Assembly: GCA_963771465.1 (NCBI GenBank)
Contig: CAVYTU010000014.1
Span: forward strand, 832,001 to 896,000
Source: an uncultured delta proteobacterium
GTDB taxonomy: Bacteria > Desulfobacterota > Binatia > UBA9968
Reading direction: 5' to 3'
DNA length: 64,000 nucleotides
Position numbers and translations under genes: made by a program. Of this stretch, positions 11,936-14,531 are shown one piece after another. How positions within the stretch are numbered: position 1 is the first letter of the stretch; each line of letters opens with the position of its first letter. The notes beneath the pieces were generated by a model, which saw nothing but the letters and a program-made list of their open reading frames with translations, was not told where the DNA came from and did not search any database.

Positions 11936-12692
11936 TCACCCAGCCCGCAGCTTGAGCAGCGTCGGAATATCCGTTGTTTCCTGATACAGACGCAGCTCTT
12001 TTTCTTTACGCTGCACGGCGAGCATGGCCATGCGGTCGGCGAGTTCGTTGCCTTCGGTGCCGACGTGGGCGGCGACGTGGGTGAGGGTCAGTTTTTTCTC
12101 AATGCGTCGGTAGATCGCGTAACAGTCCTGGATAATTTCCAGGTTCTTGATCTCGCCGCCAGGTTTTTTCCAGCCTTTCTTTTCCCAGCTCGGTGCCCAA
12201 CTGCGAATGCAGTTGATGGAATACGCCGAGTCGCTGCACACCTCGACGGTGTTGCCGGCGTTGATTTCCGCTTCGGCCATGCGCAAGGCGTGATAGAGCG
12301 CGTTCAGTTCGGCGGTGTTGTTGGTTCCCATGGGGTTGTACAGGCCATACCATAACTCCGCGAGTTTGCCGCCTCGATACACCACGATGCCGGAGCCGGC
12401 CTTGCCGGGGTTGGGTTCACAGGCGCCATCGCAATAAATGCTGACATCGAATTGGTGAGCGCTATGCATGGCAGCGCGTTCGCTGTCAGGTTTGCGGACC
12501 TTTTGCATGCCGGGCGTTTTGGCCGGAACGTTTGCGGCCGCCGTGAGCAAATGCCTCCTCTGCTTCCACACGGTTCGGGAAGGACTTGAAACGAGCGCCG
12601 GTATACTTGTCGACGGCACGCTGAGCAGTCGCCCAATCCGTGAATACACCGGTCTGCCGTCCTGACCATACGACGTAAAATTTTTGCGCCAT
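11936..12692 (-). CDS. rnhA: Ribonuclease HI with N-terminal hybrid-binding (viroplasmin/Cauli_VI) domain, split by one frameshift near 12535
   Basis: ORF 12486-12692 has KFYVVWSGRQTGVFTDW (HBD). ORF 11936-12649 has DGACEPNPG, TNNTAEL, SDSAY, HVAAHVGTEGNELAD. Confidence 0.9.
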
Positions 12693-12752
12693 GCTGAGTC
12701 GATGTGCCTCCTGGAGAAATTGCTTCTTGCGGGTTTCGCGCGAGGAAATTTT

Positions 12753-12826
12753 TCACCACAGTTCGCAGAGTTCGGAGTAACGTTTATAAAAACCTTGACT
12801 GCGAGACCTCAGCGCCTCTGCGGTGC
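12753..12826. repeat. Palindromic intergenic element (caccacag...ctgcggtg with internal gttcgcaga repeats)
   Basis: Imperfect terminal inverted repeats and 9-nt internal repeats; REP-like. Confidence 0.5.
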
Positions 12827-12867
12827 AATCTCCGATCAGTTGTTGCTGGCGAAGCTGGTGAAAATAT

Positions 12868-12884
12868 CGCGTCGCCCGGACGCG
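12868..12884 (-). promoter_or_regulatory. Candidate bacterial SECIS hairpin CGCGUC-CGGGC-GACGCG
   Basis: 6-bp stem (five GC pairs) starting 13 nt after the in-frame UGA at 12898-12900. The loop starts 19 nt after the UGA, with G at loop position 2. Confidence 0.55.
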
Positions 12885-12888
12885 TTAA

Positions 12889-14385
12889 TCAGGTACCTCA
12901 GAAAGTTCGGTAATGACCGTACCCTTCAGGCGGAGGTTCGGTAAAGGCGGCAAACTCGGGCTGATCGTCGAACGGGCGCGATAGGATATTCAGCAGCGTT
13001 TCGAAAGGCGCGTAGTCGTCGCGTTCCACCGCAGCACTCAAGGCTTCCTCTACTCGATGGTTGCGCGGAATGAACGCCGGATTAACACGCCGCATCGCTT
13101 GTGCGCGCGCCAAAGGCGCCACCGCCTCGCGTGCAAGCCGCGCGCGCCAGTGTCCACTCCAGAGATCGTAGGCAGACGGATCGGCAAACAGGGCGCGAAT
13201 CGGTTCCTCGTTGCCTAAGGCCGCATCGGCGAGGTAACGGAAAGCCAACGTGTAGTCAACTTTCTTTCCCGCCATCGCGGTGAGAAACCCCGTGGCGAGG
13301 TTGAGATCGGCCTCGTCCTCGCTGACCAGTCCGAGCTTGGCGCGCATGCCTTTTAGCCAGTGGCGTTCGTATTGTTCTGTAAAGGCGTTGATCACCTCAG
13401 TGGCGCGTACGATGGCGCGTTTTTCATCAGCATCGATCAGCGGTAAAAGCGTCTCCGCCAGCCGCGCAAGATTCCACTGCGCGATGTTGGGCTGATTGGC
13501 GTAGGCGTAGCGACCCCGAGTGTCGATGGAGCTGAAGACGGTTGCCGGATCATAATGATCCATGAAGGCGCATGGGCCGTAGTCGATGGTCTCACCGGAG
13601 ATCGCCATATTGTCGGTGTTCATCACGCCATGGATGAAGCCCACATGCATCCAGCTGGCAATGAGCGCCGCTTGCCTTTCGCACACGCGCTCGAGCAATC
13701 CGAGGTACGGATTCGCATGGCCCTTTAGCTCCGGATAGTGACGATCGATTACGTAATCGGCCAGGCGACGCACCTTGGCCGGCTCACCGCGGGCGGCGAA
13801 TAATTGGAAGGTGCCGACACGGATGTGGCTGGCAGCAACGCGGGTCAAAACCGCGCCCGGTAGCGCGCCCTCGCGATAGACGGGCTCGCCCGTGACCACT
13901 GCGGCAAGCGCCCGGGTCGTCGGGATACCAAGCGCGTGCATCGCTTCGCCGATCAAGTATTCACGCAACACGGGCCCGAGTGCCGCCCGGCCGTCGCCAG
14001 CGCGCGAAAATGGCGTGGGACCCGAGCCTTTGAGCTGAATGTCACGACGACGTCCGTTGCGGTCGATCACCTCGCCCAGGAGCAGCGCCCGCCCGTCGCC
14101 AAGTTGGGGCGCGAAGCCGCCGAACTGGTGGCCGGCGTACGCTTGAGCCAGCGGCAGCGCTCCCTCGGGTGTCTGATTGCCGGCAAAGATTCTCGCGCCT
14201 TCCGCGGAATCGAGAGCCGTGGCATCCAGTCCCAATTCTTCAGCCAACTCAATGTTGAGCTTGACCAATCTAGGCTGCGCCACTTGCGCCGCCTTCCAGG
14301 GCACGTAGAAGCCCTCAAGTTCGCGCGCATAGGTATTGTCGAAGGCGAATCGCGCGGCGGCAGGGTTGTTCGGGACGTGCGTCAT
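12889..14385 (-). CDS. selO: Protein adenylyltransferase SelO/YdiU, putative Sec-containing (tail TF-U-GT*)
   Basis: [44 protein letters not shown]. Start ATG 14385 with AAGGAAG. The ORF stops at TGA 12898 exactly where family members have Cys in TFCGT, and GGT ACC TGA follows in frame. Confidence 0.93.
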
Positions 14386-14531
14386 CGGGTGACTTCCTTG
14401 GTCGGGGCGATTAATGAATCCTCGTGCTATCATTCTTCTCGATATCGAAAGAAATATCTACACCTGTTCCAAAGAGTGTCCTTGGTTTTCAATACGCTTT
14501 GCGGGTTATGCTTTCGTAAACAAATCGACGG

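Follow-up and report, generated by a model that had tools for sequence, protein, structure and literature searches.

The question raised by this locus is whether an in-frame TGA codon, lying third from the end of a bacterial selO/ydiU gene, is a stop or encodes selenocysteine (Sec). The gene lies on the minus strand of a 64,000-nt stretch of DNA from an uncultured member of the Binatia (assembly GCA_963771465.1, contig CAVYTU010000014.1, positions 832,001 to 896,000), referred to below as the window. An earlier note, made from the letters of this stretch, had proposed that the product, an AMPylase of the SelO/YdiU family, carries Sec in place of the conserved C-terminal Cys and that the codon is followed by a hairpin resembling the selenocysteine insertion sequences (SECIS) of bacteria. 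On re-reading, the minus strand runs exactly as it was given there, TAC CGA ACT TTC TGA GGT ACC TGA, then TTAA and the hairpin letters CGCGTC CGGGC GACGCG. The elements concerned are the following, in window coordinates.

12889..14385, minus strand: selO/ydiU coding sequence if the UGA is decoded; counted from the ATG at 14385 it has 498 codons and a stop, and it ends ...YRTF-U-G-T-stop.
12898..12900, minus strand: in-frame TGA, the proposed Sec codon, residue 496 counted from the ATG at 14385 and 512 from the ATG at 14433.
12892..12897, minus strand: Gly-Thr codons GGT ACC, translated only if the UGA is decoded.
12889..12891, minus strand: TGA proposed as the true stop, 6 nt past the Sec codon; it is TGA in 15/15 TGA-type ends that were collected without selection for it.
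12868..12884, minus strand: SECIS-like hairpin within the 3′ untranslated region (UTR), with stem CGCGUC/GACGCG (12884-12879/12873-12868) and loop CGGGC (12874-12878).

The window gene most likely represents a bacterial selenoprotein form of SelO/YdiU in which Sec takes the place of the C-terminal Cys, a reading that we would put at a probability of roughly 0.88. We infer the insertion of Sec itself, and with it the TF-U-GT tail that the earlier note had proposed, from the anatomy of the sequence, the alignment of the UGA with Cys, the presence of Sec machinery in the genome, the alternation of TGA with TGC among orthologues and the occurrence of the hairpin only where the codon is TGA. A ribosome arriving at the UGA (12898-12900) would meet a small hairpin 13 nt downstream (loop CGGGC, at +19) that would recruit SelB with Sec-tRNA(Sec); Sec would be put in for the conserved Cys, followed by Gly-Thr and termination at the next UGA. 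Because Sec would be third from the end, nearly the whole SECIS would lie behind the stop codon. Partial termination at the first UGA would be expected to give a product without U-G-T alongside the full-length protein.

Among selenoprotein families SelO is the one most widely conserved, and the Sec or Cys near its C-terminus is regarded as a redox switch on AMPylation. The window protein matches PF02696 from Pfam (401.8 bits against a cut-off of 22.8, E 5e-120, profile positions 6-464 of 466) and NF000658 from NCBIfam (588.2 bits against a cut-off of 431), and scores below the cut-offs of the SelO equivalog models NF045949 (449.9 bits against 850) and NF040880 (430.7 against 900), so that by these profiles its membership of SelO/YdiU is at the subfamily level only. 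It aligns over its full length with the solved SelO/YdiU chains of E. coli and P. syringae (PDB 6III, 6K20, 6EAC; E 4e-108 to 5e-105). In alignments the window UGA corresponds to the C-terminal Cys of 6EAC (P. syringae SelO) and to the TGC or TGT of 16 Cys-type orthologue ends, which finish in Y-[RQK]-T-F-C-G-T; the window protein thus belongs to the same family as E. coli YdiU and P. syringae SelO and would differ from them in having Sec where they have the C-terminal Cys.

According to a review, SelO activity in E. coli is controlled by a disulfide joining Cys272 of the activation loop to Cys476 at the C-terminus, where higher eukaryotes have Sec; the review also gives Cys at the C-terminal site in all prokaryotes (PMC7278666). 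By analogy with the Cys272-Cys476 disulfide, the Sec of the window protein would take part in a redox-sensitive selenenylsulfide. Since the position of E. coli Cys272 is occupied by Phe in the window SelO, the partner of Sec is probably the Cys of a DYGPC motif, which lies 12 residues before the Cys272 position and is invariant in 37/37 aligned sequences.

The start of selO was taken as the ATG at 14385, as in the earlier note, because it is the start of the public gene call and because members of the protein cluster share an MTH... N-terminus beginning there. Starting from another in-frame ATG, at 14433, would lengthen the protein by 16 residues, the open reading frame (ORF) up to the first TGA then spanning 12898..14433. 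The public gene call for exactly this DNA runs from the ATG at 14385 to the UGA (495 residues) and omits the U-G-T tail.

The TGA is not a singleton. The genus was sampled with 31 genomes, including that of the window, and SelO was found by protein search in 21 of them and gave no match in 10. One unpublished genome (G005) is counted as having no SelO match and as positive for selA and for the peroxiredoxin-like protein described below, so that the tallies of 21/31, 26/31 and 22/31 rest partly on it. The Cys position is TGA in 13 genomes (G000, G002, G006, G009, G011, G014, G015, G016, G018, G019, G020, G043 and G045) and TGC in eight (G003, G004, G007, G008, G012, G024, G041 and G042), and Sec-type and Cys-type orthologues of ∼90% identity stand in the same clade. 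SelO was found in 2/16 genomes from two other families of the order, with TGA in both. Among 401 genomes of the phylum, SelO (E ≤ 1e-30) was found in 23, the nearest outside the window being 61% identical, and none of the other 22 SelO-bearing genomes of that sample has the C-terminal TGA.

Fifteen distinct TGA-type ends were obtained by protein search and hence without selection by pattern. In all of these the UGA is followed by GGN ACN TGA with changes confined to third positions (GGT, GGC or GGG; ACC, ACA or ACT), and the hairpin GCGUC-CGGGN-GACGC is present in 15/15, while the spacer before it is variable and the sequence past it cannot be aligned. A degenerate pattern of 24 nt, standing for Y-[RQ]-T-[FY]-TGA-G-T-TGA, served to collect further TGA-type ends. 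The ends found in this way are preselected for GGN ACN TGA and are uninformative on those codons, whereas the sequence beyond them was not selected. A collection of genomes yielded 38 stretches, of which 25 were SelO C-termini and 13 chance matches. Among the former are several identical with members of the window's genus; one of these is labelled 'Chloroflexota', which is probably a difference of labelling. Metagenomes yielded at least 118 stretches, and among the matches listed 95 were SelO, 19 were chance matches and four had too little upstream sequence; the Binatia-type hairpin core follows in 86/95 of the SelO loci among the matches listed.

In the window the hairpin stem begins 13 nt past the UGA and folds as six pairs closed by a pentaloop (−8.2 kcal/mol for the bare hairpin); the loop starts 19 nt past the first TGA and has G at its second position, as had been claimed. 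The bacterial SECIS (bSECIS) model, as quoted in a 2026 review, calls for a loop of 3-9 nt with G among its first two nucleotides, an upper stem of 4-16 bp, a distance of 16-37 nt between UGA and loop and an energy of −7.5 kcal/mol or below (PMC13188914). The window hairpin fits the geometry of this model, with a loop of 5 nt, a stem of 6 bp (5 bp in most relatives) and a spacing of 19 nt, the spacing being the same in 24/26 Binatia-type ends. The five inner pairs are kept in 26/26 of these ends, with one U-A changed to U-G, and the sixth is C-G in seven, U-A in three and unpaired in 16. The weak lower stem suggested earlier does appear when the window is folded as a single sequence, but it is not conserved in the alignment. 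The 15-mer core of the hairpin is unique in the 6.9-Mb genome, which argues that it is not a repeat element.

The hairpin is confined to genes in which the codon is TGA. Its core motif occurs in 26/26 Binatia-type TGA ends and in 0/16 Cys-type ends, ten of the latter coming from the same clade (two gene fragments among them) and six being more distant; in all 16 the hairpin is absent or decayed, and the occurrence of the same structure in Cys-encoding relatives, which the earlier note would have taken as the mark of a terminator, is not seen. Four Cys-type ends (L022, L023, L046 and L047) retain a decayed copy with shared changes, ...CGAGUCAGG.... The earlier note had suggested looking for TGA/TGY alternation accompanied by a covarying hairpin, and the first element stands, with the hairpin restricted to TGA forms, whereas covariation within the Binatia type is not significant (see below). 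[quoted passage not shown] Ends entered this comparison through an expression requiring an upstream PF/PY-D/E motif and at least 50 nt downstream, by which some pattern matches were omitted. Thirteen pattern-scan loci, including contigs lacking the motif and the four contigs with short upstream sequence, were read individually, and the hairpin is present in twelve.

Three unrelated stem sequences occupy this one position past the UGA. Besides the Binatia-type stem, a Reyranella-type clade has CUGCUCC-GUC/GGC/GGG-GGAGCGG with the loop at +18 to +20, and a CGGGA loop also occurs; the Reyranella metagenome-assembled genome in the genome collection has CUGCUCC-GUC-GGAGCGG with the loop starting at +19. 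A single Binatia-like metagenome contig (L158) has a third stem of 8-9 bp, GCGAGCCG-GGU-CGGUUUGC, with the loop at +20.

The machinery for Sec insertion that the earlier note had suggested seeking, selA, selB, selC and selD, is complete in the window genome (6.9 Mb in 19 contigs). The tRNA-Sec, which ARAGORN calls SeC(tca), scores 76.7 bits where the gathering score is 47, and a selA-selB-selD cluster lies on the window's own contig (C14:197319-201637), with profile scores of 614 bits for selA, 358.6 for selB (cut-off 242) and 376 for selD. The selD gene (C14:200741) itself has an in-frame TGA, at VKAAG-U-AAKLGP, and is of the Sec type. Across the genus, selA is found in 26/31 genomes, including 11/13 of those with TGA-type and 7/8 of those with Cys-type selO. 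The Reyranella genome has tRNA-Sec (selC), selB and selA adjacent to one another.

Other genes of the window genome also appear likely to encode selenoproteins. A whole-genome scan for CGGGN loops 14-29 nt past an in-frame TGA gave 18 matches, which is no enrichment over TGG, TGC and GGA (17-22), CGA (48) or TGA with other loop motifs (7-30), and matches were kept only where the UGA falls on a known redox Cys. One match, at C14 rc 1085557, was dropped since it appears to be two adjacent genes. Three were retained:

C14:823118-823747, minus strand: peroxiredoxin (Prx)-like protein of the AhpC/TSA family, FYRGYW-U-TFC, with hairpin CAGCU-CGGGA-AGCUG and loop at +20, ∼8.3 kb before the start of the window.
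C14:230092-231108, minus strand: DedA(VTT)-rhodanese fusion, LYCSU, with loop CGGGU at +21.
C9:180152-180682, minus strand: DUF411 protein with PG-U-GCC instead of a CGCC-type motif, with loop CGGGC at +20.

Of the NCBIfam models, NF041203, rhodanese-related (seleno)protein, matches the DedA-rhodanese fusion best, with 80.8 bits (E 6.5e-23), short of its cut-off of 115 bits. In the Prx-like protein the TGA is kept in 24/24 genus matches, and the hairpin reads CAGCU-CGGGA-AGCUG or CAGCUC-GGN-GAGCUG, a reading from which the sequence of G005 (L124) was left out. Read by eye, selD has a different candidate stem-loop. Together these genes lend support to the idea that the SelB of this organism would recognise G-rich loops placed ∼20 nt from the UGA.

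Several observations weigh against the decoding of the selO UGA as Sec. Taken alone, the fold of the 54-nt window region is unremarkable (minimum free energy −14.8 kcal/mol, z −1.36, with 18/200 shuffles equally good), and the bare hairpins of the 26 Binatia-type ends range from −5.2 to −8.5 kcal/mol, 14/26 lying at −5.2 to −5.8 and thus being weaker than −7.5. Within the hairpin of these 26 ends the stem hardly varies, and covariation is accordingly not significant (a score as high as that observed occurs in 123/500 shuffles); structural support is therefore drawn from the unrelated stems of other clades and genes. A search of 12780-12960 against Rfam, at E up to 10, matched no family, and a simple terminator scan flags the window hairpin, CGCGTCCGGGCGACGCG followed by ATATTTT. 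Two TGA-type genomes of the genus (G009 and G045; 93% and 92% complete, each with selO in pieces) gave no match to selA, selB or tRNA-Sec, and G449 gave none to selA or selB. A more distant SelO on a metagenome contig (L183, the one individually read locus lacking the hairpin) has PYRTF-TGA-GGG-ACG-TGA followed by a run of T and, under the criterion given above, by no SECIS-like hairpin; its TGA may be a genuine stop or may be served by another type of SECIS. Contigs from RNA libraries (runs X15 and X16) cover other parts of selO and none crosses 12856-13047, so that the UGA is uncovered and these contigs are no evidence for or against expression.

The rival explanation that survives best, although it is unlikely, holds that the first TGA is a real stop, that SelO ends at ...YRTF without the regulatory Cys and that the hairpin is a terminator or an mRNA-stabilising stem-loop. 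It can claim the shortness of the hairpin and its lack of internal covariation, the result of the terminator scan and the two TGA-form genomes without matches to Sec machinery, together with the public gene calls, which end at the UGA. However, a terminator-like tail (at least five T in the tail window) stands behind 1/26 orthologous hairpins, most of the others being followed by runs of A, from which it follows that termination is not a conserved function of the hairpin; an intrinsic (rho-independent) terminator, that is, a GC hairpin with a U tract, was rejected on this count. Nor would a real stop account for the in-frame retention of Gly-Thr codons and a second stop with synonymous change only in the 15 unselected ends, for the fixed position of the loop at +18 to +20 in all 88 ends among the matches listed across three unrelated stems, for the decay of the hairpin exactly where TGA has become TGC or for the fact that the residue replaced is a functionally important Cys.

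Less probable again is that the UGA is read through without SelB, by a near-cognate tRNA for Trp or Cys, and that the hairpin stimulates read-through in a generic way. The conservation of the frame and of the downstream codons is compatible with this, as it needs only some read-through, but the genome has a complete Sec system and other genes with UGA at a redox Cys and similar loops, the UGA stands exactly at a Cys position where it alternates with TGC, a second UGA close downstream serves as the stop and the geometry fits the published bSECIS model.

Parts of the window stretch occur in 21/23 listed public runs, mostly soil and rhizosphere metagenomes, and contigs of two soil metagenomes from different studies (runs X1 and X4) cover the whole of 12600-12918 and show three differences from the window, all of them outside the TGA and the hairpin. 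An error for TGC or TGT in what is a long-read-like assembly, for which a possible indel at 12754 (three runs) and the split selO genes of some relatives might be cited, is accordingly refuted for practical purposes: a substitution would be required and not an indel, as the earlier note had argued, and the TGA recurs in independent assemblies (27 distinct genome-derived ends), in at least 95 metagenome loci and in run contigs of two studies.

With Sec decoding thus retained as the preferred reading, the direction of change between Sec and Cys can be considered. A quick maximum-likelihood tree was built from 37 full-length proteins (ORFs of at least 440 residues, with the last 12 residues removed); it leaves out L038, L040-L043, L049-L051, L083, L086, L087 and L097 and is Sec-enriched, as its genome-scan members were chosen by the TGA pattern. 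All Binatia-type sequences form one clade (SH-aLRT 98), in which every basal branch has Sec and the Cys sequences are nested inside, and the Reyranella sequence is sister to it with a support of 80 and a long branch. Parsimony on this tree gives six changes, at least three of them forced by well-supported branches. Because the tree sample is Sec-enriched, the hairpin relics in Cys-type genes were weighted above the tree, and the two together suggest at least two replacements of Sec by Cys. In the genomes compared, such replacement does not go together with losing the Sec trait: selA is present in 7/8 Cys-type genomes. A Cys five residues before the Sec/Cys position (12913-12915, His in the window) occurs in 8/16 Cys-type ends as against 1/95 distinct Sec-type ends among the matches listed, the remainder having Arg or His; it may represent a compensating second thiol (C-x4-C) acquired after the loss of Sec, the counts being taken without regard to relatedness. 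A broader proposal, that Sec was ancestral in the SelO of the whole soil lineage (Binatia and allies) and was lost to Cys at least twice with the Sec machinery kept, with the hairpin decaying after each loss and the −5 Cys usually being gained, is tentative and is offered as a conjecture with rather less than an even chance of being right.

Some irregularities of the assemblies concern selO itself. In two Cys-type genomes (L042 in G003 and L043 in G004) an extra frame of 97 residues, 3-4 kb from the full-length selO, carries the SelO C-terminus only (residues ∼431-514) and ends in TFCGT. The gene lies in two or three frame-shifted pieces in G019 (L038/L041), G045 (L049-L051) and G018 (L035/L044), which reflects either assembly indels or a decaying gene. 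In the window, selO is followed downstream by a ribonuclease H (RNase H) gene and is preceded upstream by an NMT1-like gene and then by amidohydrolase, AAA and DUF72 genes, and none of these neighbours suggests a functional partner for SelO. Relative to the window, one base at 12754 is absent from contigs of three public runs (X1, X4 and X15); the assembly may have an indel error here, in the interval from selO to the RNase H gene. Near this position, ORFs 12304-12759 and 11936-12649 overlap in different frames.

A bacterial Sec-containing SelO is already in print as a computational prediction, although not in these lineages as far as the accessible text goes, so that the novelty left open in the earlier note is that of the organisms and not of the kind. 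The deep-Sep study (mSystems 2025, PMC12013277) predicts Sec-containing SelO homologues in certain bacteria, presented as their first detection there and naming Desulfosediminicola ganghwensis, and describes TGA-containing and Cys-containing homologues; the 2026 review includes a 'Selenoprotein O-like protein, PF02696' among prokaryotic selenoproteins (WP_136798779.1; PMC13188914). The protein of D. ganghwensis IMCC35004 resembles that of the window in being a bacterial SelO (COG0397/PF02696) with an in-frame TGA proposed as Sec and a predicted bSECIS, likewise by computation only; the organisms differ, being Candidatus Binatia and Reyranella here, and the comparison is by text description and not by Sec position. 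A search for literature combining Binatia and selenocysteine found none, the deep-Sep supplements, with possible further Sec-SelO organisms, lying outside it, and a term search of the BSepDB paper found no mention of SelO. The Sec-SelO genes described here are, on present sequence evidence, a well-supported new example, from new lineages, of the kind predicted in 2025 and not a first.

Vertebrate SELENOO, according to reviews, is likewise a SelO carrying one Sec close to its C-terminus, but it is described as having a CXXU motif and, in the 3′ UTR, a kink-turn SECIS of the eukaryotic kind, whereas the window gene has the tail HYRTF-U-GT, which lacks a Cys at −3, and a hairpin of bacterial type. 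A eukaryotic-type SELENOO was accordingly ruled out by the tail, which is not CXXU, and by the lack of a SECIS match in Rfam.

A SECIS in the 3′ UTR, held in the earlier note to be unusual for bacteria, is indeed uncommon, but it has both natural and engineered precedents. In SaoC and in the KCU-star proteins of Campylobacter and Helicobacter, Sec is last or last but one and the hairpin lies past the stop, that of SaoC having a 7-bp stem and a GGU loop (bioRxiv 10.1101/2022.07.06.499078); for TrxR1 engineered in E. coli, with Sec near the C-terminus, the fdh SECIS was appended behind the ORF (PMC10778597). The window gene shares with these the position of Sec at or near the C-terminus and of the hairpin behind the stop codon; it differs in belonging to an unrelated protein family and in having two sense codons and a stop between the UGA and the stem.

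The only bacterial Sec-SelO found in print is a 2025 software prediction, and what is added here is a large soil clade in which close Sec and Cys orthologues stand side by side, with apparent repeated reversion from Sec to Cys and decay of the hairpin, together with three unrelated stems at one position and a common loop in other likely selenoprotein genes of the genome. Public gene calls systematically stop at the UGA, so that a catalytically relevant SelO tail is missing from the databases. The compact natural candidate SECIS behind a stop codon may be of practical interest for recombinant selenoprotein tags, and the Sec/Cys orthologue pairs would be ideal material for asking what selenium buys SelO. 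Should Sec prove to be ancestral in this lineage, the CGGGN/GGN loop at +19 to +21, common to four genes, would define the SECIS of its SelB; selenium supply would decide whether the redox switch of the AMPylase is present, as the termination and Sec products differ by U-G-T only; and the repeated losses would amount to an experiment by nature on the ways in which an enzyme makes good the loss of selenium.

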